Numbered from the stretch's first letter, positions 3,907 to 63,814 are shown. The stretch is DNA of 64,000 nucleotides from Candidatus Terrybacteria bacterium RIFCSPHIGHO2_01_FULL_48_17 (GCA_001822835.1 MHSS01000015.1:2113-66112), one strand, 5' to 3'. Numbers and translations: made by a program. The notes: generated from the sequence alone by a model not told the origin.

Positions 3907-4908
3907 TTACGTTTCTTTATTTGAAATATTGCGAAGGCGATCAAGTTGATTGGAAAATTTTTCAAGACCGCGCTCGGCATCGTCATACGCGCGTACCGCA
4001 TTACGTAAATGCCCGCCAGCGATCCGAAACCGTTCCCCAAACATGAGAAGCTCCTGGTCAAGGGCTTTTAGGCCCGCAAGAATTTCGCGCGCAGAAGAAG
4101 CAACCTGCATTCCTCGCAAACCAATTAAGATGGTTCGTAAATAAGCGAAAAAAGTGCCGGGGGACATGGGAATAATTGCGCGATCAAAAATCGCATCGGC
4201 AAGATCCGGAAGGGCAATAATCTCTGAATATACGCCTTCGGATGGAATATAGAGCATGGCAAAGTCCGCTGTACCCTCTTGAGGCACAATATATTTTTTC
4301 CTGATTGCCTCTGCGTGTTGCTTCACGACCTGCGTAAATTCCTTTTGCGCATGCTCGCGCGCTTCGGGAGACGAACGCTTCAGACGTTCATACGCTTCCA
4401 TGGGAAATTTTGAGTCGATAGGAATGAGTAATTCACCTGCACGAATCACAAAATCGACCCTTTCCCCGGACCGAAAAGTAAATTGCTTCTGCCAAAGGCC
4501 TGCTTCTTCACCCCCAGGCAGGTGCTGGGCTAAAATATTTTCAAGTAATTTTTCACCCAAAGCTCCACGGACGCGTGGCGGTTGCAAAATCTCCTGAAGT
4601 CGTGCAATATCTTTAGATTGTTCAAGCACTCGGCTTAACGCGGAACGCTGCTCAACCAATTGGTTTGAAACATCACGTATTACATCCTGGGTTGAAGAAT
4701 GCGATCGCTCGGTCATTTGTGCTAAATGCCCAATTCTTCGATCAAGCATCGCAACGGTCTCTGAAATACTTCGGGAAAGTTGTTCAACCTTTCCCTTAAG
4801 CTCTCCGTTCTCACCCTGTTGGCTCCGTCGCTTATCCCAAAGGATAAATGCGGCAACAACTATTGCTACCGCAAGAAAAAAAATAGCTAATGGAAAAACA
4901 AAAGACAT
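3907..4908 (-). CDS. rmuC: DNA recombination protein RmuC
   Basis: Conserved RmuC C-terminal domain. The chosen start, ATG at 4908 (MSFVFPLAIFF...), gives the N-terminal TM helix. The ORF-track TTG extension to 4965 overlaps the upstream gene. Confidence 0.75.
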   Translation of the reverse strand: MSFVFPLAIFFLAVAIVVAAFILWDKRRSQQGENGELKGKVEQLSRSISETVAMLDRRIGHLAQMTERSHSSTQDVIRDVSNQLVEQRSALSRVLEQSKDIARLQEILQPPRVRGALGEKLLENILAQHLPGGEEAGLWQKQFTFRSGERVDFVIRAGELLIPIDSKFPMEAYERLKRSSPEAREHAQKEFTQVVKQHAEAIRKKYIVPQEGTADFAMLYIPSEGVYSEIIALPDLADAIFDRAIIPMSPGTFFAYLRTILIGLRGMQVASSAREILAGLKALDQELLMFGERFRIAGGHLRNAVRAYDDAERGLEKFSNQLDRLRNISNKET

Positions 4909-4909
4909 T

Positions 4910-5125
4910 TTATTGATCAGTTCGTTGAAGACGCGGCAAAAGCTCCTCAAATCCCTGGCGGTCAAACCCTTGGCTCGGCAAAGAAGTTTCTGGCGGTATT
5001 TCCGCTGCCTTCTGAATCGCTTCTCGCGCCTGCAACAAAGACCACGCGATCATGCCCACGGCCAGAATCAGCGCGCCAATTGCGGCAAAAGACCAAATCC
5101 AATAAGGAATACGTTTGGTGTGCAT
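4910..5125 (-). CDS. hypothetical small membrane protein
   Basis: 71 aa with one TM helix. Its stop lies 1 nt before the rmuC start, inside the pilus operon. Confidence 0.4.
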   Translation of the reverse strand: MHTKRIPYWIWSFAAIGALILAVGMIAWSLLQAREAIQKAAEIPPETSLPSQGFDRQGFEELLPRLQRTDQ

Positions 5126-5133
5126 ACGAAATA

Positions 5134-5673
5134 CTACGGCCTTGATGCGCGAAATATCATAAATCCCGAAATGGTAAACTGCGGCAATTCATTCCGCTGT
5201 CCGCTCGATGAAACTCCTGATATGACAATTACGACGGGAAGGAGATCAAATTCGCGAAAGAGAGAAGTGATGCGTTCGCTTTCGGTTTGAGCCGTAATTT
5301 TAAACACCACATTTTCAAAACCAGGAGTGCCGGCTGCCGGATCAGAAAAAGTGATAACGGCATCTTGAAGCATTTGATTGGTTGTTTGTGTAACTTTTTG
5401 TTTTGCCGAATTAAACGATGTGAAATCGAGCACCGGTACGAGATCACGAACTTGTTCCGTATACGGAACAAGTTCTGCGGCATCCTGTTTTAACGATGCC
5501 AATAATCGAATTTGCGCTGTGGCCTCTTCTGTCTGTTGTCTTTTCGTTTGAATAGAAGTGAGTTTTTCCGGTAAGATGTTTCTTGCTGCAAGAATAACAA
5601 GACACGCAAAGAGAATTACTCCAAAACGAAGAGCCAAAAAAACAACTAGCTTGCTTTTGGGAAGTCGCCTCAT
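5134..5673 (-). CDS. PilO-like type IV pilus assembly protein
   Basis: Bitopic: TM, then coiled-coil, then a beta domain. It sits immediately downstream of pilM/pilN. Start placed at ATG 5673 (MRRLPK...); the track start at 5679 is TTG. Confidence 0.5.
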   Translation of the reverse strand: MRRLPKSKLVVFLALRFGVILFACLVILAARNILPEKLTSIQTKRQQTEEATAQIRLLASLKQDAAELVPYTEQVRDLVPVLDFTSFNSAKQKVTQTTNQMLQDAVITFSDPAAGTPGFENVVFKITAQTESERITSLFREFDLLPVVIVISGVSSSGQRNELPQFTISGFMIFRASRP

Positions 5674-5688
5674 AAACAAAACAGTGGC

Positions 5689-7191
5689 CTAAAAACAGGA
5701 AATAAACTGAAGGGCAAAATTAAATGGAATATTAGATGACGATATATTAAGTTTAGGAGATACTTTGGTCGTAAACAAAGCCGAGTCGTTGATGCGCTCG
5801 TGAATGGATAAATATGCTTCGTCGGTATCTGCAATGCCGGTGATTGAAACACGAGCATCTTGCTGAATTGTTAATTGCTGTAATTGTATGCCCTGGCCGA
5901 GTATCGCGTTTTCTATCCGCGGCAATATATCGGCAAAAGAACAACGAGTGTTTTGTTGAAATGCTTGTCGGGCTATAGCTACAGCACTATTAAACTCTTG
6001 CGCCTGCCCAACAAGCTCTGTAACTTCAGGATTTGTCTTTGCCTGAAGCGCGTCATTGGCCGCCTTTTCTTGAATTGTTACAATTGCAAACGTTGCGGCA
6101 AATATGATGGCACTCACCGCTACACCCAGCGCAATTGTATTTCCCGCAAACCTGATAAAAAATTCCGAGACACTTCGAGAATATGCTTCTTCGGTACGCA
6201 CGGACATAAGATTAACCAAATGATCCTGGCTTCGAGGTATAATTCCCCTCAACGAAGCCCCTCTAATGGCCGCTTTAGAAAGTTCGTGCTCTATGGTGGC
6301 AAAGCTTACGGTAATTCCCAACTGCTCAAGCTCTTGTATCGCCTTTATGGTTGCATCATCAATAAGGCCATCTATCAACATACGACGCGTTGCAATGTGT
6401 TTGGTATGATCTTCGATTTTTAAAAACCGGACAAGCGTAGTCAGCTCGCGCGCAATCATTGCCGCCCGCTCCTCTGGTGTCACTGAATCAATAATCACAT
6501 GATGCGGAAACCTCACTGCATCTCCCTCGATCGCTGCGGCAAGCACTGCATCGGAAAATAGATACGCGACAAAGCCCGGACGGGCAGGATCTTGGGTAAG
6601 CCCGCGGGCCACGGAAAGCATAAGCGGTTCCGCGGCAACCACCCGCAATCCCGCAGAGTGCGCTGCAACAAGATACGGCTCAACGTCTTGTTTCCGCGCT
6701 GCTATAACTACATATTCCTTCATGGCTTCCGTGCCCTCTTGTGTGTTGTGCGCGACCAATTGCCAGTCGATAAATGCTTCTTTTGGCGAAACAGGAAGCA
6801 TGCTCTCTGCCTCCAAACGAAGCATTGAATCAATATCCTCGTTTCGTGTACCAGGAGGAATCGTAACCGTTTTTGCAAAAAGCGGAAGGACGGGCAATGA
6901 GAGTACGACGCTATGAGTGGATAAGGGCATTGGTTTTGCTTTTGTGATTGCCTCTTTCAATGCCATTTCAACTGCTTTCGCATCGATAAGTTTACCGGAA
7001 GAGATGCTGCCAGGCGGCAAAGGTACAGCGCCCTCAGTAACTACTGCCGGTGGAAGATTGGGACCCTGGACAATAAGCTCTGCGACACGAACCCGCGCTT
7101 CTTCAATGGCCACACCGGCGATATGCTCGTGGCCTTGTACGGCCGTAATCAACGCATCAATATATGTTTTTCCAGGAAATCGGAATTTCAT
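5689..7191 (-). CDS. type IV pilus assembly protein PilM fused to PilN
   Basis: 500 aa. The N-terminal region has an actin-like ATPase fold pattern (PilM), followed by a TM helix and a PilN-like coiled-coil/periplasmic domain. Confidence 0.7.
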   Translation of the reverse strand: MKFRFPGKTYIDALITAVQGHEHIAGVAIEEARVRVAELIVQGPNLPPAVVTEGAVPLPPGSISSGKLIDAKAVEMALKEAITKAKPMPLSTHSVVLSLPVLPLFAKTVTIPPGTRNEDIDSMLRLEAESMLPVSPKEAFIDWQLVAHNTQEGTEAMKEYVVIAARKQDVEPYLVAAHSAGLRVVAAEPLMLSVARGLTQDPARPGFVAYLFSDAVLAAAIEGDAVRFPHHVIIDSVTPEERAAMIARELTTLVRFLKIEDHTKHIATRRMLIDGLIDDATIKAIQELEQLGITVSFATIEHELSKAAIRGASLRGIIPRSQDHLVNLMSVRTEEAYSRSVSEFFIRFAGNTIALGVAVSAIIFAATFAIVTIQEKAANDALQAKTNPEVTELVGQAQEFNSAVAIARQAFQQNTRCSFADILPRIENAILGQGIQLQQLTIQQDARVSITGIADTDEAYLSIHERINDSALFTTKVSPKLNISSSNIPFNFALQFISCF

Positions 7192-7215
7192 ATAGTATTG
7201 TATCCTTTCTCCATA

Positions 7216-9729
7216 TTAACGATTTCGTTCGCCAGGGACAAATGAAGGTTCTGGTTTTAGCGGTTCTGCAAGACGGGAACGGCGCAAAATTGCTTCCTCA
7301 ATTGCTGCGCGCGGATGGCCGAATCGCGTACGAGATAATTCCCGCAAAGAACGAATACGGTCCGCACTAAGTTGCATGGGTCTGGCTATACGGATATTAA
7401 AGGGACGCTCAACTCGTCCTGATACCAAAAGTCGCACATATGCATTGAAATTTTCGATGTTTACCAGATCATCTTCACCAAATACTGGAGCGAATTGTTT
7501 TACCAAAAATTCAGCATCTTTCGGGCCTATCCGAAACGACACCAAAGATCCGACATTTCCGAATACCGCCTCACGAATAGAATCGGAAAGTTGGGCAATA
7601 AACTGGTGTGCCAAAACCATATTGAGCCGATACTTTCGTGCCTCGGAAAGAATGGTTGCGATCGAATCGGTAGTAAAATTCTGGAACTCATCAATATAGA
7701 GATAGAAATCGCGACGCCCTTCTTCAGCGATATCCGCGCGTCCCATGGCAGCCATTTGCATCTTTGCGACCAAGATGAGTCCTAATAAGCTTGAATTCAC
7801 TTCCCCTACGCGTCCTTTTGAGAGATTCGCGATGAATATCTTACCCTGATCCATAAGATCCCGGAGATTAAATCCCGATCGCTGCTGCCCAATGATATTT
7901 CGCATCATCTCATTTTCAACAAAACGACCGACTTTTGATATCAAATAGCCAAGCATTTCTGATTTATGAAATTCGGTTGTTTTTGCCATTTCTTTTTCCC
8001 AGAAGGCCCGAACCATGGGGTCGGTTACCTTCGGCAACAATTGCCGCAAATATGCCTCATCTGTAAAAATACGAGGAATTTCAACGATAGTGCCTGGGTT
8101 TTCGCGATCCGCCATAAGTGTTAACATGGCATTTCGCATATTATGTTCAAACATCGGCCCAATAACTTCTGGGGGAAACAGCTTCATGAAAATCGCAATC
8201 ATTTCCTGAACGGCAAAATCCTTTTGTTCTGGACTAGACCATTCAAGCATATTTAGACCAACCGGTCTTTCCATATCTGCAGGATCAAAATAAACTACAT
8301 CTTCCGCGCGTTCTGACGGAACCATACCAAGCACCGCTTCTGCCAAATCGCCATGGGGATCTACTACCGCCACTCCGTTACCTGCAATGAGGTCTTGGGC
8401 AATGAGATTACGAAGAAATGTTGTTTTCCCTGTCCCGGTCTGCCCCACAACATATAAATGCCGGCGCCTATCTTCCGATGCCAGGCGCACCTTTGTCTCA
8501 ATGCCGCGGTATGTATTTATGCCAAGTTCAAGCCCCTGGGCCGGCAAATTTACCGGGGGGGCTGCTGGTTTTGCCTTCACAACTTTCACCTTTGGCGTTT
8601 CTAATGCCACGCTTGGAAAATGGAAAAGGGAGGTCAACTCTTCCGTGCTACATAAAAAAGAAGCGGCCGGATTGAACGTTCTAAATGAATAGCGGTAAAT
8701 AAGATCCCTTAATGCCCTATTTTTCGTGTTAAAAAACCGAACGGAATTAAGATGCGGTGTATGGTATTGGGAAAATGCGGCCTCCAGATCTTCAAGCATC
8801 TGATCCGCTCTCGCCTGATGGGGTGCCGAAGTAATGATACGAAGATTTGTTTCAAACATCGGCTTTGCGGCCTTTTGTTCCAGCGCCTTAACGATTTCCT
8901 GGATAAGAGGCGTGACTGGTTGAAAAGATTCTGCAAAATATGGCGTTGCGGCACGGCGCCGGGCTTCGGGCGTTCCTTCGCGCGGCTGTGGCATCATTTG
9001 ATAGGATTTCGCCGACGACTTTCCCCCGCGGAGCATTGCAGCCGCTTGCCCCCACAAGGATAATTCAAAACGCGCGCGCTCAAAAGAATGGCCCGCTTTT
9101 TGCATTTGCCGCGCGATACGACGCCCACGTGTTGCTTTGTTTTTCCCTGCGGGACGAATAATAAGCTGTATTGCAGCACCCTCCCCCTCTGCTTCAAGTT
9201 TCGACAATGCACCGGTGAGCGCTCGCAAAGGATCCGATTCCAGAATTTGATAGGTCTTCAACGGCAACGCCCAATCATGTTCGAACCGTGCGTTCGCGCC
9301 CGCGTGCGCCCCCTGTGGATGAAAAATATTATAATCACCAACACGTTCTACTTCGGCAGTCGGGTACACGGCATGAATTGCCTTTTCAACAGGGGCAACC
9401 CATCTATGAGGAGAAGCAACAAAAAATGCAAGTTCCTCTCCGACATTAGGCAATGCAATTTCAAGCGCAACGTAAGGTTGTCCGGTAAACCACGTATGCA
9501 TACCTTGCTCATGAATATGAAAGAGGGCTGCATACAACTGCTCCATAACCGCAATTTTTTCTCGCTCTTTTGCAACATCCTCCCGCTCAAAAACACGAGG
9601 CAAAGAAACCCGCAATAATTGGTAATTGAGTGAACGCTCTAAAACAAAGCGGCGATCCCAACGAGAGAACCACCAAAAAACTCCGCCTGCAAGCGCCACG
9701 ATGATAGACAATACGATAAAAGTTATCAT
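7216..9729 (-). CDS. membrane-anchored FtsK/HerA-superfamily P-loop ATPase, TraD/TraG/VirD4 coupling-protein-like
   Basis: 837 aa. N-terminal TM helix; Walker A GQTGTGKTT near residue 430; Walker B LYIDEFQNF (FtsK/T4CP-like DEF). The roughly 400-aa N-terminal domain has no obvious family. Confidence 0.55.
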   Translation of the reverse strand: MITFIVLSIIVALAGGVFWWFSRWDRRFVLERSLNYQLLRVSLPRVFEREDVAKEREKIAVMEQLYAALFHIHEQGMHTWFTGQPYVALEIALPNVGEELAFFVASPHRWVAPVEKAIHAVYPTAEVERVGDYNIFHPQGAHAGANARFEHDWALPLKTYQILESDPLRALTGALSKLEAEGEGAAIQLIIRPAGKNKATRGRRIARQMQKAGHSFERARFELSLWGQAAAMLRGGKSSAKSYQMMPQPREGTPEARRRAATPYFAESFQPVTPLIQEIVKALEQKAAKPMFETNLRIITSAPHQARADQMLEDLEAAFSQYHTPHLNSVRFFNTKNRALRDLIYRYSFRTFNPAASFLCSTEELTSLFHFPSVALETPKVKVVKAKPAAPPVNLPAQGLELGINTYRGIETKVRLASEDRRRHLYVVGQTGTGKTTFLRNLIAQDLIAGNGVAVVDPHGDLAEAVLGMVPSERAEDVVYFDPADMERPVGLNMLEWSSPEQKDFAVQEMIAIFMKLFPPEVIGPMFEHNMRNAMLTLMADRENPGTIVEIPRIFTDEAYLRQLLPKVTDPMVRAFWEKEMAKTTEFHKSEMLGYLISKVGRFVENEMMRNIIGQQRSGFNLRDLMDQGKIFIANLSKGRVGEVNSSLLGLILVAKMQMAAMGRADIAEEGRRDFYLYIDEFQNFTTDSIATILSEARKYRLNMVLAHQFIAQLSDSIREAVFGNVGSLVSFRIGPKDAEFLVKQFAPVFGEDDLVNIENFNAYVRLLVSGRVERPFNIRIARPMQLSADRIRSLRELSRTRFGHPRAAIEEAILRRSRLAEPLKPEPSFVPGERNR

Positions 9730-9744
9730 GAACGGAAAGGGCCC

Positions 9745-10167
9745 TTATTGACGGTGTAGCTTGCCGCGTTTTATAAGTTCATTAAAAAGCTTATCAACAA
9801 GAACATCGTGGAACGCGTCAAGGACGTATGCAGAATCGATGCTGCGGGCAAGCCGTATAGCTGGTTCAATGCCTTCAGTCAAAGCAATTTGCGCAAGCGC
9901 CACAACCTTCCGTGCGTCTGGCATAGCAGCAATATCGCGCGCATCCGGATGCACAAGAGCTCCTTGCACCGTTTGCTGCGGCATAACGGGTACCGTGGGA
10001 CGTATTCGATGCGACTCTTCCTGCACACGTTCGCGCAATCGTTCTTTTATCTCATCGTGGCGTTCGGGTCTCCCTATCGCCTCTCGATGTTCCCCAAGAA
10101 CTTCTTCCCATCTTGGATGTAAAACTTCCGGCCGCTCACTAGTAGCACGTGGATTTTCATTTGCCAT
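9745..10167 (-). CDS. hypothetical charged protein, first gene of the pilus/ATPase operon
   Basis: Start placed at ATG 10167 (MANENPRAT...), because TGGTATAAT lies 6 nt upstream. The track start at 10194 is TTG. Confidence 0.45.
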   Translation of the reverse strand: MANENPRATSERPEVLHPRWEEVLGEHREAIGRPERHDEIKERLRERVQEESHRIRPTVPVMPQQTVQGALVHPDARDIAAMPDARKVVALAQIALTEGIEPAIRLARSIDSAYVLDAFHDVLVDKLFNELIKRGKLHRQ

Positions 10168-10173
10168 TCTCTT

Positions 10174-10182
10174 ATTATACCA
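10174..10182 (-). promoter_or_regulatory. extended -10 (TGGTATAAT), 6 nt upstream of ATG 10167; leaderless-type promoter
   Basis: Read directly: CCGTGGTATAATAAGAGA-ATG on the minus strand. Confidence 0.5.
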
Positions 10183-10209
10183 CGGATAACCCAATCTTTC
10201 GCTGACTCA

Positions 10210-10218
10210 TGGTATAAT
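10210..10218 (+). promoter_or_regulatory. extended -10 (TGGTATAAT), 7 nt upstream of ATG 10226; leaderless-type promoter, divergent from the previous one
   Basis: Read directly: catGGTATAATaaagttaATGggaaaac. Confidence 0.5.
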
Positions 10219-10225
10219 AAAGTTA

Positions 10226-24504: not shown

Positions 24505-26553
24505 TTAGGCAGGTTCTTTTGGTTGAGGATAACGAGCAAACAAACGCGCAAGCGCAGGCAATAGCACCAGGGCGGTTGCCGCTGCACCAGCAGTCATCAA
24601 CGCAATCAGAATACCAAGCTCCTTAATAGGAGGAAACGAGGAGAAAAGATACACCAGAAATGCAGCAATAGTGGCAATGGCATCAATAAGAATGGGTTTT
24701 CCGGTTGTTCTTCCGATTTCTGCAAAATCGTCGGGTGTGCATGCTTTTGTTTTCCGTGCGTGATCGAGGAAATGCAGACCAAAATCAAGCCCGATGCCAA
24801 CAGCGATGCCAGTAATTAATGCCGTCGCCATGGTCAATGATATGCCAAGCCACCCCATGGCGCCAAAAGTAAGGACAGTTGCAAGAATAAAGGGCAATGG
24901 CGCCAGCACTCCAAAGCGCAGGGCGCGAAAAGCAAAGATACAAACCAAAAGAGCGATTATCACTGATGCAATAATATTATTAACTTGTCCTCGTATCATG
25001 ACGTCATCTTGCTCGGCAGCAAGCGCCATATCTCCTGCCGTAGCAATTGTAATACCCGGAAGATGGGATTGGCCGGCCTTCAGAACCATTTCGCGAACAC
25101 TCCGGATAACATTGCTTTCGGTAGAACGAAGCCGAATGCGCAAAAGTGCGTAACGATACGATTCATCAAAGGGGTCGCCGAGTTTTTCCCATTGCGGAAT
25201 TACTATTCCGATATCGGGATTCGTTTGAAGGGCACCAACGTATTCCTGGAACGCAATGATCTCTTGCGGATCTGTAAAAATCCCCTCCGTTTTCCCATCA
25301 AGCAACACAACCATAGAAGCTGCCCCGCCAAAAGATGAACGCAAAATCTTATCGGCAGCCCGTGCCTCGTGATCGCTCGGAAAATAGGCAATGAGATCTG
25401 ATCCTACTTTAGGGGGTAAGCCAACAAGCACAAAAATGCTTACGGCTATTACCACGCCCGTCACTAAAATTGGATACGTGGAAGAAAAACGAGCAATGCT
25501 TGCGGCAAAAGCACCCAACGTTTTATCGATCGCAAGCTCGATTAAGCCCACGATTTTCCGTACCGTTCCTTGCTTTGGCGCCACCGGTCCAGTCCCAAAC
25601 ATCATCAATACCGCTGATCCTCCCCCTAAAGCAAAAAGTGCGGTTAAAACTGTCCCGATCGACGTGACAATCCCAAACGTCCGGATGGTGGTAATGGGAA
25701 AGGTCCCCAATGTTGCAAACCCAACTGCCGCAATAGCGCTTCCCCACAAAACCGGCCAAGCGCTTTGATGCAAAGCGGAAGTAAGTGCTTGGAGAGGATT
25801 TGCCCCTTCACGTCGCAAATCCTGGAAATGCACAAAAAGATATACAATATAGGGACCGCCGAAGGCAATGAGTATTAAGGGAGTAAGCATAAGGATCAAC
25901 GATACCCCAATTCCAAAGGCCCCGATACCGGCAAACATAAGCGCTACAACGGTAGCAAGCAGGAAAAATGCGCCAATCGCCAACATGATTTTCCTAAACG
26001 ACATCCAAAATACGAAAAACATTAGGCCGAATGAAAGCGGCAAAAGCAACATAAGGTCACGCGCGATACCATTTTGGATGTCATGCACTAATACTTCCCG
26101 ACCAGTCAGCAAAACTCTTCCTACTCCGACACTTTCTAGGGCACGCCGCATAGACGGGATCATAGCAAGAATTTCATCGCTCAAGGTTGCATCGATTTCC
26201 ATTGGAACCAATACTGCCCGATCATTGGCAGAAGGTTGACAATCCGTAAACCAAACTCCTGGATATTGTGCAAATGAAAACGCCTTTTCACAAATATCGA
26301 GAAAAGTGGTTCGTTCAATTGGGTTTTCGGATGTCACGACAAAGGCGATTGTCTCTCGCTTGCCCACGGCCCGTTCAATAAACGAAAAATCCTGGAGTAC
26401 GGAATTATCATTAGGAAGGTCGCGATCGATGGGAACGCGAGAAACATGAAGGGTTCCGACCGCGATAGCAATGGAACCGATAAGCAAAACGGCGAATCCC
26501 AAAAGCGCTGCAAAACGAAACCGCATTGCAAGAAATGTAAGTTGTGAGATCAT
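24505..26553 (-). CDS. MMPL/RND superfamily transporter
   Basis: 682 aa. Two 6-TM bundles separated by a large extracytoplasmic loop. SD GGGGAA sits 4 nt before the ATG. Confidence 0.7.
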   Translation of the reverse strand: MISQLTFLAMRFRFAALLGFAVLLIGSIAIAVGTLHVSRVPIDRDLPNDNSVLQDFSFIERAVGKRETIAFVVTSENPIERTTFLDICEKAFSFAQYPGVWFTDCQPSANDRAVLVPMEIDATLSDEILAMIPSMRRALESVGVGRVLLTGREVLVHDIQNGIARDLMLLLPLSFGLMFFVFWMSFRKIMLAIGAFFLLATVVALMFAGIGAFGIGVSLILMLTPLILIAFGGPYIVYLFVHFQDLRREGANPLQALTSALHQSAWPVLWGSAIAAVGFATLGTFPITTIRTFGIVTSIGTVLTALFALGGGSAVLMMFGTGPVAPKQGTVRKIVGLIELAIDKTLGAFAASIARFSSTYPILVTGVVIAVSIFVLVGLPPKVGSDLIAYFPSDHEARAADKILRSSFGGAASMVVLLDGKTEGIFTDPQEIIAFQEYVGALQTNPDIGIVIPQWEKLGDPFDESYRYALLRIRLRSTESNVIRSVREMVLKAGQSHLPGITIATAGDMALAAEQDDVMIRGQVNNIIASVIIALLVCIFAFRALRFGVLAPLPFILATVLTFGAMGWLGISLTMATALITGIAVGIGLDFGLHFLDHARKTKACTPDDFAEIGRTTGKPILIDAIATIAAFLVYLFSSFPPIKELGILIALMTAGAAATALVLLPALARLFARYPQPKEPA

Positions 26554-28729: not shown

Positions 28730-29128
28730 TTAGGCATCCTTGTCAGATTCCTCGACTGAAACTGCAGCGCTTTCTCGCGGATTCTCATCGACAGCCGTAG
28801 CAACTGCTGTTTCTTCTTGTTGTGATTCTGCCGACTGCGCGCCTGGTACATCTTTTTTCGCCGCGATTGCGTGCACGGGGCGCTTTGGTCCTTCTACAAT
28901 ACCCGCTCGTACCAACAAATTCCAAACGGGACTCGAAACTTGCGCGCCTTCTTTTATGCGGCTTGTTATTCGCTCCTTATTAATCTCGAAGGTTTTTTTA
29001 AGAGGATTATACCAGCCAAATTTTTCTATGTATTTGCCTCGGACTGGTTTTGACCGCTTCGGAACCAGCACCACCCGGAAAGCAGGTTGGTGCCGACGTC
29101 CGAATCTCATAAATCGGATTGTAAGCAT
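28730..29128 (-). CDS. rpsP: 30S ribosomal protein S16 with an acidic C-terminal extension
   Basis: Start MLTIRFMRFGRRHQPAFRVV at 29128. TTGACA-N17-CACAAT ends 8 nt upstream, which fits a leaderless transcript. The track start at 29155 is upstream of that. Confidence 0.85.
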   Translation of the reverse strand: MLTIRFMRFGRRHQPAFRVVLVPKRSKPVRGKYIEKFGWYNPLKKTFEINKERITSRIKEGAQVSSPVWNLLVRAGIVEGPKRPVHAIAAKKDVPGAQSAESQQEETAVATAVDENPRESAAVSVEESDKDA

Positions 29129-48914: not shown

Positions 48915-49478
48915 CTATTCAAGCTGCACCGAACCTTCAGCTCGGGTACCGCCTTTCATGAACACCTGATAGCGTGCTTGTATTTGATTTCCCAAAATGG
49001 TCCCGTTTACCTCCAAGCGGTCAATCCCCGGCGCTTCAACGCTCGGTGCATTCATGGTAAATTCTCCAGAAGGTTTAATGGATATAGTAAAGTCCCCAAA
49101 AAGGTCGTCGTGGTCAGAGAAATAAAGTTCTGCCGGGCCATATGTGCCAGCAAAGGTTTTGGGATCCGGATCAACTAAACCAAAAACCATCCCTCCCACA
49201 TCTACTGTAAACGAAGCGGCTCCATCAGGATTAACAATGATATTAGCCGAGATACCGCCTTTGGTGCTAAAAGTAGTATTTGTCCACGTTCCCTGCCGTT
49301 CTCCCGCAAAACTTGAGAATTGGTCATATCCTACCGCGGGTTGCAATAGAGGAGCTTCACTGGCGGGCTCTTGTTTTTTCGAGGAGCCGCCCCCACCCGC
49401 TAAAATGATGACCAAAATAAGAAGCGCCCCAGCGGCTATCGTAAAATACAATAAATTCTTTTTTGAGAAGTATTTCAT
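48915..49478 (-). CDS. hypothetical secreted/membrane-anchored protein
   Basis: 187 aa with an N-terminal TM/signal segment and a Gly-rich linker. TATAATAAAGATAT lies immediately upstream of the ATG. Confidence 0.5.
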   Translation of the reverse strand: MKYFSKKNLLYFTIAAGALLILVIILAGGGGSSKKQEPASEAPLLQPAVGYDQFSSFAGERQGTWTNTTFSTKGGISANIIVNPDGAASFTVDVGGMVFGLVDPDPKTFAGTYGPAELYFSDHDDLFGDFTISIKPSGEFTMNAPSVEAPGIDRLEVNGTILGNQIQARYQVFMKGGTRAEGSVQLE

Positions 49479-57942: not shown

Positions 57943-60021
57943 TCAACGCCCTTTCACGCGCCGCAAGAATTCCCCCTCGTCAATAATTTCTATACCAAGT
58001 TTTGTGGCCTTTTCGTGTTTTTCACCAGGATCTTTCCCCGCAACGACGAAAGAGGTTTTAGGGCTTACGACCGTTGTTACGGTCGCGCCATGTTCGCGCG
58101 CGCTTTGCTGCGCCTCGTCCCGCGTCATGGTTTTAAGTTCTCCGGTAAATATAACAGTGGTACCCGAAAGCGATTGTTTTTTATCTTGGATTTTTGGCGC
58201 GATTGCCCGCACGCCAACCCGCTGTAGTTTCCTAAGCAATGTTCGATTCTGCGCACTTTCAAACCACAAAGCGATCGAGCGCGCAACGGTAGGACCGATA
58301 TCGGGAATTTGCTGAAGATCCTTCTCCCCCGCAGCGGAAAGATTCTCTATGGTTTTAAAACGTTGCGCAAGAATACGGGCAGTTTCATCTCCAACATGCA
58401 AAATGCCCAGCGCTTTAATAAGTCGTTCAAACGGCACTTTCTTTTTTGCTTGAAGTGCCGCAGCAAGTTTATTTGCCGAAATTTCCGCAAATCCTTCCAC
58501 TTGCAAAAAACCATCTTTGCTTAAAGTAAAAAAATCGGCGGCATCTTTTATAAATCCCCCGTCGATAAGCTTATCCACGGTTTCGGGCCCCAACCCCTCG
58601 ATATCAAATGCGCCCTTTGAAACAAAGTAGTAAAAATGTTCACGCCGAAGCGCTGGACATTTTTTGTTTTGACACCGGATGAATACGCCGTCGCGGACCG
58701 TGGGTGAACCGCACTCCGGACATCGCCGAGGCGTTGCTTTAGCCCGCGCAGCTTTTGGCCGAAGAGACGGCAAAACACGCACCACTTGTGGAATGACATC
58801 ACCGGCCCTGCCGACAATCACAGTATCGCCCTCGCGGATATCGAGTTTTTTAAGCTGATCAAAATTATGAAGTGTCGCATGTGTAACCGTCACTCCGCCA
58901 ATAGATACGGGGCGCAATTTGGCCACAGGAGTTAAAACGCCGGTACGTCCTACAAAAATATTAATTTTCTCAACAACGGTTTCTGCCTCGCGCAATTCAA
59001 ACTTATATGCAATCGCTCCCCGCGGAGCTTTTCCTACCACACCAAGGCGGCGGAACGCGCTATTATCATTTATCAAAACGACGATGCCATCAATCTCGTA
59101 AGGCAGGCCGTCGCGATTCTTTTCCCACGAATTGCGGAAGGAAACAACATCATGCGGGTTTTTGGCGAAACGGTTGTGGGTATTGGTTTTAAAACCAAGC
59201 GCACGAAGGAGGGCATGCGTTTCCTCGTGCGTCTTTTGACCAAGATCGGTTACTAAATCGTAGGCGAACGAATCAAGATTCCGGGATGCGGCTACCTTTG
59301 GATCAAGCTGACGGATTGATCCTGCAGCAATATTGCGGGGATTAGCATATAGGGACTGGCTGTGCTTTTTTTGTTCCCGATTGATTGCCGCAAATTCTTT
59401 CTTCCCTAAAAAAACTTCACCGCGAACTTCAAGATGCCGAGGAAATCCCTTTCGTAACTGCTTGGCAAGTTGATGAAAGCCCTCTTTTGCCAAATCCACT
59501 GCTACCTCTTTTGATGTACGCAGGCCTAACGGGATCGCTTCAATTGTTTTAAGGTTATGCGTTACATCTTCTCCAACAACACCATCGCCCCGTGTAGAGC
59601 CCACAGAAAACAAACCGTTGTTATATTCAAGCGAAACGGCGAGGCCGTCTATTTTTAGCTCAAGAAAAAAACCCTCGCGCAAGACCTCTGGAACAAGTTT
59701 TGAAATGCGTTCTACCCAAGAAAAAAAATCGCCTTCAGAGAACACGTCGTTGAATGAAAGCATGGGTACCGCATGCCGGACTTTGGTAAACTCTGCCCGC
59801 GCTTTGCCGCCTATGCGTTGGGTTGGAGAGTCGGACGTAACAAATTCGGGAAATTGATATTCAAGCTGCTCAAGTTCTTTTTTGAGCGAATCGAGTGCCG
59901 CATCGGAAATCTCTTGTTGATCCAGAACATGGTACAAGTACCGATGGCGATTGATCTCTTTTTTGAGATTCTCGATCCTCTCTCGTACCCTCTGTTTTGT
60001 GAGTTTTTTCCCCATATCCAT
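57943..60021 (-). CDS. ligA: NAD-dependent DNA ligase
   Basis: KxDG adenylation motif (LKIDGLAV), OB fold, 4-Cys zinc finger, HhH motifs and a C-terminal BRCT domain. TGTTATAATAAACG lies immediately upstream of the ATG. Confidence 0.9.
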   Translation of the reverse strand: MDMGKKLTKQRVRERIENLKKEINRHRYLYHVLDQQEISDAALDSLKKELEQLEYQFPEFVTSDSPTQRIGGKARAEFTKVRHAVPMLSFNDVFSEGDFFSWVERISKLVPEVLREGFFLELKIDGLAVSLEYNNGLFSVGSTRGDGVVGEDVTHNLKTIEAIPLGLRTSKEVAVDLAKEGFHQLAKQLRKGFPRHLEVRGEVFLGKKEFAAINREQKKHSQSLYANPRNIAAGSIRQLDPKVAASRNLDSFAYDLVTDLGQKTHEETHALLRALGFKTNTHNRFAKNPHDVVSFRNSWEKNRDGLPYEIDGIVVLINDNSAFRRLGVVGKAPRGAIAYKFELREAETVVEKINIFVGRTGVLTPVAKLRPVSIGGVTVTHATLHNFDQLKKLDIREGDTVIVGRAGDVIPQVVRVLPSLRPKAARAKATPRRCPECGSPTVRDGVFIRCQNKKCPALRREHFYYFVSKGAFDIEGLGPETVDKLIDGGFIKDAADFFTLSKDGFLQVEGFAEISANKLAAALQAKKKVPFERLIKALGILHVGDETARILAQRFKTIENLSAAGEKDLQQIPDIGPTVARSIALWFESAQNRTLLRKLQRVGVRAIAPKIQDKKQSLSGTTVIFTGELKTMTRDEAQQSAREHGATVTTVVSPKTSFVVAGKDPGEKHEKATKLGIEIIDEGEFLRRVKGR

Positions 60022-61868: not shown

Positions 61869-62516
61869 CTATTCTTCAATAAATACAGCCCCCACTGCAT
61901 TCACCAATACCGTGCGACTTGCTGCCCCACGCACCAACGAAATACGAACCGCGGGAAGAACAGTGCTGCCCGCAGTTTTGCAATTTGAGCCGCGCGACCC
62001 AATGCCTGTCGTTTCATCATACAAAAACGTATTGGGGTTAGGGGGGCAGAAAAAAAATGTGAGAGTATCCGCGTTGGTTATGGTGCTTGGCGGAGAACCA
62101 AGATCGCACAAAGGCATAGAACACTCAAAAATTTGGGCGTTTTGTGCTCTAACCTCGCTGCGGAAAGTGCGCGAGTCAACGAATTCGCCCGCGGTCTCGC
62201 TATAGGTCATGTCATTATCCAAATCGGCAAAAAGCGTCGTTTGGGTATTAGCGCCGCCGCCCGGATCATCGGAAACAACAACTCCATACCCAAAGGGCAC
62301 GACCCCTTGAATTTCTGCGGAGCTTGCGGCAAGCGCCTGGGCTTTACGAATATCCAATGTCAAAAGCTGCGCCTCCCTGCGTACTGCTTGTTCTTCCCGC
62401 CCCCTGCGCAATGTTACGCTCACTACCCCCATAAGGATCGTGGCGATTGCGATAACAACGATAATTTCGATCATTGAAAATCCTGCTCGATGACCGCCGG
62501 AAAACAATCGCCGCAT
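61869..62516 (-). CDS. prepilin-type N-terminal cleavage/methylation domain protein (GspH/FimT-like)
   Basis: ...HRAG|FSMIEIIVVIAIATIL. Start chosen at ATG 62516; alternatives are 62540 and GTG 62561. Confidence 0.6.
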   Translation of the reverse strand: MRRLFSGGHRAGFSMIEIIVVIAIATILMGVVSVTLRRGREEQAVRREAQLLTLDIRKAQALAASSAEIQGVVPFGYGVVVSDDPGGGANTQTTLFADLDNDMTYSETAGEFVDSRTFRSEVRAQNAQIFECSMPLCDLGSPPSTITNADTLTFFFCPPNPNTFLYDETTGIGSRGSNCKTAGSTVLPAVRISLVRGAASRTVLVNAVGAVFIEE

Positions 62517-62526
62517 AAAAAAAGAG

Positions 62527-62916
62527 CTAGTTTTTTGCATATCGAAAAAGAATGGAATCACCGCGGCTGACTAATTGGTATTGAAGGGGACCGGCTACCC
62601 AAACGTTATTGAGCCATACGGCCCAGCTTTGTACTCCTCCAATCCTAAGCCCCGAAGCATCCATGGCAGGCGATAAATCAAAAGAAATACGTCCGGTCTT
62701 GGCAGAAGCGCGAAGCACATGCAAAATAGTGGTTCCGGCAAGGACGGGTCCCTCAAATACCCGCACGGTACCATTGCCAAAATCAATGGTTACACGGGCG
62801 TTATTCCGTCCCAAAATAGTTTCTCGTGTACCAATTGGAGGTCCGAAAACGCTGAGGAAAAAAGCAAAGGCCGTTGCCAAAACCAAAGCAAGTATTAAAA
62901 AATCCCTACGTACCAT
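62527..62916 (-). CDS. hypothetical exported protein inside the pilin cluster
   Basis: N-terminal TM/signal segment (MVRRDFLILALVLATAFAFFL), then a beta-rich domain. Start chosen at ATG 62916. Confidence 0.4.
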   Translation of the reverse strand: MVRRDFLILALVLATAFAFFLSVFGPPIGTRETILGRNNARVTIDFGNGTVRVFEGPVLAGTTILHVLRASAKTGRISFDLSPAMDASGLRIGGVQSWAVWLNNVWVAGPLQYQLVSRGDSILFRYAKN

Positions 62917-63001
62917 AGTGTTAGTGTACCAATTTAGACCTTCCCTGCCCATCTATCAAAAACCTTTTGTCCGGCAGGCATACAGCGCTCGCTTAAACTT
63001 G

Positions 63002-63814
63002 TTAGTTGCTAAAAAGGAAAAAGGCAAGAAGATTACGGAGCCATATTTCGGGGACAAAGTACATCACAACCGGCGGGATGATAAGAAAAGGGCCGAAGGG
63101 AATCGTTTGTTTAAGCGTTTTGGCACGCAGCATCACCAGCGCGAGCCCAACGAACGCACCTAATATAAACGAAAACGCAAGAGAAAAAAGAATCAAGGGA
63201 TACCCCACAAGCGCCCCAAGCGCCACGGCAAGCTTCACATCCCCCCATCCCATCCATGCGCCGCGCGATACCATGGCAAATACGGCCAAAAATACGACCG
63301 CAAGCAAAATACCAAGGCCGGCTTGAGAAAACGCCGGAGGCAATAATCTTTGCTCAATTACGTCAAATGCGCGCAGTGCCACAAGACCCGTAGCTCCCAC
63401 TACTGCCGTAATCCATGCGCTATCGGGAATAATATAAAAACGAAAATCGGCAAAAAATGCGAGTGCCAAACCAGAAAATGATATGAGAACAAAAAATAAT
63501 AGTGTAAACTCTCCAGCTCCTGATGAATCACTAATTATTTGCCACGCAGAAAAACCAAATAATAACCCAAGACCTAATTCTTCAAAAAGATGACGTTGGG
63601 GAATTAAGACACGGCATTGGCTGCATTTTCCCAAAAGCCAAAGCCATGAAAAAATGGGAACAAGTTCCCACCATAAAAGCTTTTTCCCGCATGCGGGGCA
63701 ATGGGAACGACCAGTAAGCGGGCCGTGATTCACGGCCCGCTCCGAAACGACGTCAAGAAAGCTTGCTATGGCTGCTCCATACACAAAAGCGAATAACGAA
63801 ACGAGTTCCTGCAT
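63002..63814 (-). CDS. pilD: prepilin peptidase (A24 family)
   Basis: N-terminal CPACGKKL...CSQCRV zinc motif, a polytopic membrane domain, and a catalytic Asp motif MGWGDVKL. Confidence 0.85.
   Translation of the reverse strand: MQELVSLFAFVYGAAIASFLDVVSERAVNHGPLTGRSHCPACGKKLLWWELVPIFSWLWLLGKCSQCRVLIPQRHLFEELGLGLLFGFSAWQIISDSSGAGEFTLLFFVLISFSGLALAFFADFRFYIIPDSAWITAVVGATGLVALRAFDVIEQRLLPPAFSQAGLGILLAVVFLAVFAMVSRGAWMGWGDVKLAVALGALVGYPLILFSLAFSFILGAFVGLALVMLRAKTLKQTIPFGPFLIIPPVVMYFVPEIWLRNLLAFFLFSN

Follow-up and report, generated by a model that had tools for sequence, protein, structure and literature searches.

A Patescibacterial coupling-protein homologue beside type IV pilus genes and rmuC: probable joining of two separately conserved modules

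Whether type IV pilus assembly genes, an FtsK/VirD4-type ATPase and the recombination protein RmuC cooperate in DNA uptake and processing was the question raised by a cluster of six genes in a genome of Candidatus Terrybacteria (Patescibacteria/CPR). A reading of the sequence alone had placed these genes in one operon and had proposed that they travel together. Their identities, promoter-like elements and gene order in relatives were used here to answer it.

Arrangement of the cluster and promoter-like elements

The cluster lies on the minus strand at 3907-10167 of the window, i.e. the whole analysed stretch of 64,000 nt. All six ORFs were found at the places given by the sequence-only reading, and the gaps of 15, 24, 9 (or 15), 8 and 1 nt agree with its range of 1-25 nt. 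The proposed module A is composed of the gene of a 140-aa protein (9745-10167, minus strand, ATG at 10167; publicly annotated as A2806_03310 with equal product length) and the ATPase gene (7216-9729, minus strand, 837 aa). The proposed module B is composed of the gene of a PilM-PilN fusion, pilMN (5689-7191, minus strand, 500 aa), a pilO-like gene (5134-5679, minus strand, 181 aa from TTG, or 179 aa from ATG at 5673), the gene of a small membrane protein between the pilO-like gene and rmuC (4910-5125, minus strand, 71 aa) and rmuC (3907-4908, minus strand, 333 aa, equal to the public product length). By a Kyte-Doolittle hydropathy scan with a 19-residue window, one transmembrane-type hydrophobic segment each was detected in the ATPase, the PilM-PilN fusion, RmuC and the PilO-like and 71-aa proteins; the soluble 140-aa protein showed no such segment. 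Closeness of these five single-pass products at the membrane is possible.

Same-strand gaps across the window have a median of 33 nt and are at most 25 nt in 43% of cases, and tight packing of six genes is not special in such a gene-dense window. Five consecutive gaps of at most 24 nt are tighter than the window average (about 0.4^5, roughly 1%, if the gaps are independent). Beyond rmuC, the same-strand run takes in genes for a Crp-like regulator, a thioredoxin-like protein and a protein of 193 aa. Between the modules, a consensus scan gave no terminator-like site that stands out from background, so that read-through of the six genes as one transcript is likely in the window's lineage. GC content is flat (0.45-0.49), and the flanks are occupied by housekeeping genes (PMT_2 glycosyltransferases, histidine kinase, alanine racemase and SerRS), with the synteny upstream of the cluster being kept in relatives with 58-81% identity.

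The leaderless promoter proposed ahead of the group was confirmed as a conserved element: the extended -10 element TGGTATAAT (10174-10182, minus strand) stands 6 nt before the ATG (10167) of the 140-aa gene and is found at three sites in the window, where 0.38 would be expected, and a (TG)nTAnAAT-like element is kept 5-8 nt before the ATG in five relatives (58-81% ATPase identity), where its flanks are not kept. TGGTATAAT is regarded as the probable leaderless-type promoter of module A. A mirror copy of this element at 10210-10218 (plus strand) stands ahead of the divergent PMT_2 gene, which it would serve. The -10-like hexamer TACAAT (7197-7202, minus strand) is located 5 nt before the pilMN ATG, within the 24-nt gap; such elements within 16 nt of the start are present in only 5 of 60 window genes. 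It is a possible, weak internal promoter of module B, with a conservation in relatives that is not clear.

The ATPase and its upstream partner

The assignment of the 837-aa protein to the FtsK/T4CP superfamily was upheld by Pfam profiles, with scores above the cut-offs for TrwB_AAD_bind (37.6 bits, cut-off 20.5), T4SS-DNA_transf (31.7, cut-off 20.1), TraG-D_C (23.9, cut-off 22) and DUF87. The FtsK_SpoIIIE part of that expectation did not stand, this profile being below threshold, and the TraD/VirD4 equivalog cut-offs of NCBIfam were missed by a wide margin. CedD and CedB, ATPases of archaeal DNA import, were matched weakly in NCBIfam, far under their cut-offs as well. The nucleotide-binding domain is of the FtsK/HerA superfamily with intact Walker A (GQTGTGKTT) and Walker B (YLYIDEFQNF) motifs, whose key residues are invariant in 50 homologues. 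The architecture consists of one N-terminal transmembrane helix, a DUF8128 domain (about residues 30-400) and a P-loop motor (about 410-790), and the model has seven helices in the stretch from Walker A to Walker B (residues 500-613), a candidate for the all-alpha domain that is inserted in the nucleotide-binding domain of T4CPs such as TrwB. Structure prediction of the N-terminal part gave a fold resembling the VirB4 N-terminal domain, and thus a VirB4-type N-terminal domain followed by an ATPase domain is predicted for this protein. Affiliation with VirB4/CagE was not found in the profile searches (no AAA_10 match in Pfam; TIGR00929 at 24.7 bits versus a cut-off of 643), and a true plasmid VirB4 was matched by BLASTP at E=0.025 only. 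A true VirB4 among mobile-element genes, which would have spoken against the sequence-only reading, is thus not what the locus holds, as the AAA_10 match is missing and the flanks are housekeeping. Judged by its profile scores, the ATPase is classed as a coupling-protein relative of the VirD4/TrwB type.

The family is large (more than 3,360 homologues found) and about 50% identical over very many CPR genomes, and a relative is encoded in 595 of 600 candidate stretches from a species-level genome collection. Plasmids of Bacillus, Streptomyces and archaea likewise carry full-length homologues, as do Bacillus phage G and phrog_5156 (8e-74). Those of the Bacillus and Embleya plasmids adjoin Replic_Relax, VirB4 (AAA_10), TcpE and PrgI, and the nearest relatives outside CPR are coupling proteins of the export side, encoded next to relaxase-like genes.

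The conserved neighbour of the ATPase is a small upstream ORF, two BLAST clusters of which cover 41 of the 70 assessable loci. Directly upstream of the ATPase, homologues of the 140-aa protein, with its C-terminal motif Y-x-LD-x-[FL]HD-x-L, are encoded in 24 of these 70 loci and in each of the five close relatives for which there is upstream sequence; another, unrelated small-protein family fills the slot in 17 other loci. No relatives of the 140-aa protein were found in Pfam, NCBIfam or PDB.

Pilus-type proteins, RmuC and gene order in relatives

The gene identities claimed earlier were backed by Pfam for RmuC, PilM and the T4CP-type ATPase; PilN is weak and the PilO-like protein is without a Pfam match. 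The N-terminal half of the fusion matched PilM_2 (PF11104; residues 26-185, 9.3e-12, 45 bits, cut-off 27), the fusion also matched TIGR01175 (1.8e-17), and its profile matched the solved PilM structures of M. xanthus, Thermus and P. aeruginosa at 5e-14 to 2e-12, the Thermus one carrying the deposit name 'competence protein'. The PilN match (PF05137, 0.0043, 17.5 bits) is under the cut-off of 22.8, and the topology, with an actin-like PilM domain, a transmembrane segment at about residues 353-371 and then a PilN-like part of about 130 aa, fits PilN. For the PilO-like protein, the best PDB match of a five-sequence profile was M. xanthus PilO (3jc8_Oa) at E=0.033 only; its single transmembrane segment and its place after pilMN fit PilO, and such a partner is kept in L105, L088, L089 and L107, so that the name PilO-like is used mainly on gene order and topology. 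The 71-aa protein has no Pfam match and a predicted transmembrane segment at residues 13-31 (hydropathy scan), with homologues in L105 (54%) and in L088 and L089 (30%) and a 99-aa ORF in the same slot in L107. RmuC matched PF02646 at 3.8e-50 (171 bits, cut-off 26) over 270 of 291 profile positions, with an N-terminal transmembrane helix, a coiled-coil region, the RmuC domain and the D...IDSK residues in its translation. From published knowledge of the family, we take it to be a putative PD-(D/E)XK nuclease. The pilin and prepilin peptidase genes are 52 kb away from the pilMN block.

Gene order was compared in close relatives, taken by ATPase identity, and in 80 species-level Patescibacteria loci. 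The ATPase-pilMN junction is kept in three sampled lineages, namely the window, L081 (81% ATPase identity) and L090 (89%), and pilMN evolves fast, with 55% identity in L090. No pilMN follows the ATPase in L086 (71%), L087 (64%), L082/L083 (61%) or L084/L085 (58%). Among the 80 loci, a true PilM within 10 kb of the ATPase was found in 3, PilM or PilB in 4 and rmuC in 5, each about chance; four of the five rmuC cases belong to one lineage, in which rmuC is upstream of the ATPase with housekeeping genes between. The other neighbours are housekeeping genes as well (DnaX, CysRS, TyrRS, GtrA and CorA). The claim that pil genes, ATPase and RmuC travel together was therefore not sustained. What stood of the synteny expectation is the pilMN-pilO-small protein-rmuC block: five contigs keep it, at identities as low as 43% for RmuC and 37% for PilMN, including L105 and L107 (the latter with a 4-nt start/stop overlap) and L088 and L089, where 23S_rRNA_IVP and other genes, not the ATPase, precede it. 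ATPase contigs and pilMN-rmuC contigs share samples (L086/L105, L082/L107 and L084/L089). Elsewhere in Patescibacteria, rmuC adjoins UvrC/UvrA in L106 and, with RecA and PolX not far off, an AddA-like helicase-nuclease in L108, and its neighbours in L004 and L011-L013 are housekeeping genes. The synteny past rmuC, from thioredoxin onward to ATP synthase, is also present in L106, which is without pilMN.

Interpretation and comparison with known systems

The best explanation of the cluster, at fair confidence, is that two modules, each conserved in its own right, were joined recently in this lineage; they may be co-transcribed but would not be a dedicated three-part machine. With the ATPase-pil/rmuC synteny lost in relatives, the arrangement would largely be the kind of neighbourhood that a compact genome ordinarily shows. 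Module A would supply an orphan coupling-protein homologue of very many Patescibacteria from its own conserved leaderless-type promoter. The ATPase would be anchored in the membrane by its one helix and work as a VirD4/TrwB-type motor, presumably as a hexamer. The VirB4 N-terminal domain docks onto VirB3/VirB8-type membrane partners, and the predicted VirB4-like cytoplasmic N-domain would likewise dock on membrane partners. The ATPase most likely recruits a substrate (DNA or protein) and energises its transfer at a membrane machine, for which the Patescibacterial T4SS-like apparatus encoded elsewhere is the obvious candidate. In module B, the products of pilMN, the pilO-like gene and the 71-aa gene may form an inner-membrane alignment subcomplex of a type IV pilus, and the membrane-anchored RmuC is presumably co-transcribed with these pilus genes in one clade. 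A link of pilus and RmuC to DNA uptake, with RmuC processing pilus-captured DNA, is possible.

A single machine, in which DNA caught by the pilus would be driven through the membrane by the ATPase and trimmed or recombined by RmuC, is rather unlikely, even with the tight packing, the probable single transcript, the membrane anchors of PilMN, ATPase and RmuC, the T4CP fold typical of DNA-handling motors and the weak CedD/CedB matches. In the same direction point the place of rmuC in the streptococcal ComX late-competence regulon (PMC5069739, PMC6560143) and T4P-dependent Ced import as a precedent for T4SS-type import, as far as it is cited in PMC12102498. However, the linkage is missing at 58-71% identity and in about 95% of the 80 species-level genomes, the nearest non-CPR ATPase relatives are export-side, and no ComEC, DprA, ComFC or channel protein was found in the cluster by profile scans; ComEC, DprA and ComFC were also without matches among the other scanned window proteins. 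ComEC-dependent transformation has been demonstrated in Patescibacteria (PMC10633639), so that T4CP-based uptake is not needed to explain competence, and a t4cp homologue was reported to be non-essential in S. epibionticum (PMC12102498). The proposed DNA uptake and processing by one pilus-ATPase-RmuC machine was thus not favoured.

It is doubtful that module B alone is a DNA-uptake unit in this clade, with pilus alignment proteins and RmuC functionally coupled so that RmuC acts at the membrane on DNA delivered by the pilus, and with the ATPase as a bystander. The block in five contigs with its 4-nt overlap in L107, the competence-induced streptococcal rmuC (PMC5069739, PMC6560143) and the deposit name of Thermus PilM argue for it, whereas the other contexts of rmuC (UvrC/UvrA, AddA-like helicase-nuclease or housekeeping genes) argue against it, and the block may reflect inherited gene order, as the post-rmuC synteny is shared by the pilMN-less L106. 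RmuC is not known to have a role in competence in any organism. The full-length plasmid and phage homologues would be accounted for if the locus were left over from an integrated conjugative element or phage, with the ATPase as a mobile-element coupling protein and the adjacent genes as cargo; this is highly improbable given the housekeeping flanks with their kept upstream synteny, the flat GC, the conservation of the family over CPR genomes and the failure to find relaxase, integrase, VirB4 or VirB6 among the scanned window proteins. Equally improbable is an anti-phage defence system of a HerA-like ATPase and a nuclease (RmuC): the matches span only shared P-loop or RmuC domains, the two genes are unlinked in relatives, and the ATPase is widely kept in housekeeping contexts, unlike defence islands.

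The VirD4/TrwB T4CPs (R388 TrwB, Legionella DotL and H. pylori Cag-beta) usually have two transmembrane helices, whereas the window ATPase has one; unlike TrwB, it also carries DUF8128 as an additional cytoplasmic domain, about 370 aa long, and its gene is chromosomal in a housekeeping context, with no relaxase, VirB4, VirB6 or other T4SS genes near the cluster, such neighbours being found only for plasmid homologues. It differs from VirB4 (R388 TrwK) in having no AAA_10/CagE-type Pfam match and no VirB3, VirB6 or VirB8 near, and the plasmids with its homologues encode a separate true VirB4 alongside. The Bacillus 'DUF87 domain-containing protein' and the Embleya T4CP are homologous over the full length (23-32% identity, coverage up to 93%; N-domain alone at E=1e-11 and 2e-5), but their genes adjoin Replic_Relax, VirB4, TcpE, PrgI and NlpC/P60, none of which adjoins the window gene. 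By description, the ATPase fits the orphan T4CP homologues of Patescibacteria (Quinonero-Coronel et al. 2025, PMC12102498), which are VirD4-type matches at about two copies per genome (5,713 homologues in 2,918 genomes), almost never near virB4 (148 only), without a relaxase and possibly exapted; the VirB4-like N-domain and the small upstream partner are not described there. Compared with PilM-PilN-PilO of M. xanthus, Thermus and P. aeruginosa, the canonical order of PilM, transmembrane segment plus PilN-like part and PilO-like protein is kept, but PilM and PilN are fused in a 500-aa chain, PilB, PilT and PilC do not adjoin, the PilN and PilO assignments are under family thresholds, and rmuC comes next. 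The streptococcal rmuC shares its regulation with com pilus genes (PMC5069739, PMC6560143), whereas the relation in the window is gene adjacency in one CPR clade and not a regulon. Like E. coli rmuC and streptococcal rmuC/ccs50, the window gene encodes a protein with a strong PF02646 match, an N-terminal transmembrane helix and a coiled coil.

Gene organisation and promoters of the cluster

Six consecutive ORFs were found on the minus strand at 3907-10167, encoding in order a 140-aa protein (9745-10167), an 837-aa ATPase (7216-9729, locus tag A2806_03305), a 500-aa PilM-PilN protein (PilMN) with a PilM_2 match (5689-7191), a 181-aa PilO-like protein (5134-5679), a 71-aa protein (4910-5125) and the 333-aa RmuC with a PF02646 match (3907-4908). 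The first and the last ORF had the same starts as the public products, and the six locus tags were identified by exact look-up as A2806_03310 to A2806_03285 in a Candidatus Terrybacteria MAG. The gaps between the ORFs were 15, 24, 9, 8 and 1 nt, respectively. The six minus-strand genes and the tight spacing described in the sequence-only reading were confirmed by these measurements, and its gene names were mostly borne out by Pfam and NCBIfam matches, with no family match in either database for the 181-aa, 71-aa and 140-aa proteins. One transmembrane-type hydrophobic segment was detected by hydropathy scan in each of five of the six products. Close packing is normal for the window, where same-strand gaps had a median of 33 nt and 43% of them were 25 nt or shorter, and the same-strand run extended past rmuC into a gene for a Crp-like regulator and then more genes.

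The promoter motif proposed earlier, TGGTATAAT, was indeed located at 10174-10182 on the minus strand, 6 nt ahead of the ATG of the 140-aa gene, and a mirror TGGTATAAT was located at 10210-10218 on the plus strand, 7 nt ahead of the divergent PMT_2 gene, the pair lying within 10168-10225. In an alignment of six relatives, a (TG)nTAnAAT element was kept 5-8 nt before the small-gene ATG amid unconserved surroundings, which supports a leaderless-type promoter for the small gene and the ATPase gene. The TACAAT found 5 nt ahead of the pilMN ATG could be an internal promoter, but it is not clearly conserved, and no conserved promoter upstream of pilMN was found in the alignment across relatives. Consensus promoter and terminator scans gave background levels; since no terminator-like site rose above background between the cluster genes, read-through is likely.

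Elements resembling -10 boxes also immediately preceded three further gene starts (48915-49478, 57943-60021 and 24505-26553), and a Shine-Dalgarno-like motif preceded only 11 of the 60 window genes; in this genome, the first genes of operons may often have leaderless starts. One more TGGTATAAT, the third, fell at 29006-29014 within an ORF whose translation reads as ribosomal protein S16.

Family assignment of the DUF8128 ATPase

The ATPase scored past the Pfam cut-offs of TrwB_AAD_bind, T4SS-DNA_transf, DUF87 and TraG-D_C, and the Walker motifs attributed to it were confirmed, with no variation among 50 homologues. A word-index search returned more than 3,360 homologues; the best 120 of them all carried PF26449 (DUF8128) before the T4CP-type domains, and the named ones among these 120 were all from Patescibacteria. 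A relative was encoded in 595 of 600 candidate stretches of a species-level genome collection. A single TM helix was placed at the extreme N-terminus by hydropathy scan, with no hydrophobic segment later in the chain, so both ATPase domains should be cytoplasmic.

Homologues on Bacillus and Streptomyces-group plasmids were found by tblastn at 23-32% identity and up to 93% query coverage, and the N-domain alone matched the plasmid homologues at E=1e-11 and 2e-5. The plasmid genes adjoin those for Replic_Relax (relaxase-like), a separate true VirB4 (AAA_10, TraC), TcpE, PrgI and NlpC/P60, and the window ATPase showed no sequence resemblance to the plasmid true VirB4 (E=0.025). The family is thus placed with the second ATPase, of coupling-protein type, in conjugation systems of monoderms, yet with an N-domain predicted to be VirB4-like. 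Thousands of VirD4-type T4CP homologues have been described in Patescibacteria, nearly all distant from virB4 and without a relaxase, and the role of this orphan coupling-protein homologue is an acknowledged open question (PMC12102498). The window ATPase fits the published picture and is a further, better-described member of this known, functionally open family.

The gene A2806_03305 was annotated at 443 aa in the NCBI record and at 837 aa in the present ORF and the JGI/ENA calls, and the N-terminal DUF8128 half is probably absent from the NCBI version. A full-length DUF8128 ATPase homologue was also found in a jumbo phage, as gp156 of Bacillus phage G (JN638751.1 91000-93093), and the phage homologues correspond to phrog_5156, a PHROG family with no assigned function (8e-74; 765/824 profile positions). 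Records with the ATPase otherwise had Patescibacteria labels; several MAGs that carry it (at loci L001, L017, L024, L025, L038 and others) were labelled 'uncultured Gammaproteobacteria' or 'Methylomirabilota', probably through mislabelling or contamination of the bins. Two of the plasmids (NZ_CP032854.1 and NZ_CP108778.1) were 'non-mobilizable' according to MOB-suite and contained what seems to be a full set of monoderm conjugation genes (DUF8128 coupling-type ATPase, Replic_Relax, VirB4, TcpE or PrgI, cell-wall hydrolase), and their mobility may be under-called.

Conservation of gene neighbourhoods in relatives

ORFs were called in 80 species-level Patescibacteria loci around ATPase homologues and the neighbours were clustered. 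The only strongly position-conserved neighbour was a small same-strand ORF directly upstream, which belonged to the 140-aa family in 24 and to a ~177-aa family in 17 of the 70 assessable loci. Homology between the two families was not detectable (hhalign probability 0.2%), no Pfam or PDB relatives of the 140-aa family were found, and neither family was found beside the plasmid ATPase homologues. Both families were soluble, low in complexity towards the N-terminus and helical towards the C-terminus, and occurred in different Patescibacteria lineages. Other recurrent neighbours were DnaX, CysRS, TyrRS, GtrA, CorA and a 211-aa hypothetical protein. Upstream synteny was intact in all close relatives (L081-L087, L090) whose contig had upstream sequence: a pair of glycosyltransferase-like genes, at least one of them PMT_2, led into the small gene and then the ATPase gene.

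Downstream, pilMN followed the ATPase gene only in L090 and L081 (ATPase identity 89% and 81%, respectively), and the next gene was an unrelated fragment in L086 (71%), NUDIX in L087 (64%), Band_7 and others in L082/L083 (61%) and an alpha/beta hydrolase in L084/L085 (58%). Pfam-verified PilM was encoded within 10 kb of the ATPase in 3 of the 80 loci, with a pilus cluster adjoining only at L074, and PilB in 2; any pilus gene (PilM or PilB) was near in 4, against a rough chance expectation of ~5 of 80 that assumes 2-3 pilus loci per ~0.9-Mb genome. The PilM count keeps only the three Pfam-verified genes; 'PilM-like' neighbours in 8 of the 80 loci were rejected, as the iterated local HMM built from PilMN had drifted to DnaK and MreB. 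For rmuC the figure was 5 of 80, four of them being one Staskawiczbacteria lineage in which rmuC lay five genes upstream of the ATPase with L21, a methyltransferase and others between. The interpretation in the sequence-only reading is partly supported: its gene identities stood, and the components belong to known families, but the conserved adjacency of pil genes, ATPase and rmuC that it supposed failed the synteny test which it had itself proposed. That adjacency is young and not conserved.

The 500-aa protein matched PilM_2 at 9.3e-12 (residues 26-185) and PilN weakly (431-478), and a profile of its homologues matched solved PilM structures at 5e-14; the 181-aa family profile had PilO as its top PDB match, but at E=0.033, and RmuC matched PF02646 at 3.8e-50. 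Contigs reached via PilMN and RmuC homologues had the order pilMN, pilO-like, small protein, rmuC. In L105 (RmuC 85%) the block ran on into the Crp and thioredoxin genes that also follow it in the window; in L088 (RmuC 55%) and L089 it was preceded by 23S_rRNA_IVP-type and other ORFs, with no ATPase; and in L107 (RmuC 43%, PilMN 37%) rmuC began with a 4-nt overlap. Elsewhere in Patescibacteria, rmuC stood in a repair context, not a pilus one, directly after UvrC/UvrA (L106, 8001-8966) or after an AddA-like helicase-nuclease close to RecA and PolX (L108, 8001-9146), and deeper synteny downstream of rmuC was also found without pilMN. A metagenome scan with RmuC was uninformative, giving solely distant (26-33%) non-CPR relatives with PilM near none. 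Only 4 PilMN homologues were returned by the word-index search, for which the family is therefore too divergent.

Evolution is much faster in the pilus alignment proteins than in the proteins encoded around them, as seen in L090, L081 and L105 against the window: PilMN had 55% identity where the ATPase had 89%, and the PilO-like and 71-aa proteins had 51% and 54%, respectively, where RmuC had 85%. At 61869-63814 (-), ~52 kb away from pilMN-pilO, lay genes for a prepilin-type protein (N_methyl motif) and a prepilin peptidase (A24). The scanned window proteins included neither PilB nor PilT nor PilC, so the pilus genes look dispersed in the genome.

Probable two-module organisation and alternative readings

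The cluster best fits two modules whose adjacency is recent in this lineage. Module A would consist of the Patescibacterial orphan coupling-protein homologue and its small partner. Judging from homology and fold, the ATPase should be a membrane-anchored hexameric motor. Through its VirB4-like N-domain it would attach to a membrane complex, for which the most plausible candidate is the T4SS-like apparatus that Patescibacteria have at other loci and that S. epibionticum cannot do without (PMC10633639, PMC12857230). Module B would consist of a pilus alignment subcomplex and RmuC. Handling of pilus-captured DNA by RmuC is conceivable because rmuC belongs to the streptococcal ComX regulon (PMC5069739, PMC6560143); the repair-gene neighbours of rmuC elsewhere in CPR and the downstream synteny without pilMN call for caution on such a role, and that module B alone is an uptake-linked unit is unlikely.

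The Patescibacteria-wide orphan coupling-protein homologue has a predicted VirB4-like N-terminal domain, its own leaderless-type promoter and, in most loci examined, a small upstream partner; the docking domain and the candidate partner are concrete experimental handles on it in tractable Saccharibacteria. A VirB4-like N-domain on a VirD4-type ATPase may also bear on VirB4/VirD4 divergence, and the one-clade pilMN-pilO-rmuC block, together with the place of rmuC in the streptococcal competence regulon, gives a modest lead on what RmuC does.

An integrated three-part DNA-uptake machine of pilus genes, ATPase and RmuC, as the sequence-only reading proposed, is distinctly unlikely and mostly dissolves, because the underlying adjacency is young and unconserved and a ComEC route is already demonstrated in Patescibacteria: transformation of Saccharibacteria depends on ComEC (PMC10633639), which removes the need for a new import route. 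A mobile-element remnant is extremely improbable and was rejected, since the flanks are housekeeping genes, GC is flat and the upstream synteny is conserved. A defence system was rejected as hardly credible, all of its support being PADLOC matches limited to shared domains. As a long shot, the orphan coupling-protein motor may have been recruited in this Terrybacteria lineage to work with RmuC and the pilus alignment complex in ComEC-independent dsDNA import, with the N-domain seated on PilM/PilN and RmuC processing the DNA; the logic of such a route would be comparable to that of the archaeal Ced or H. pylori ComB systems.
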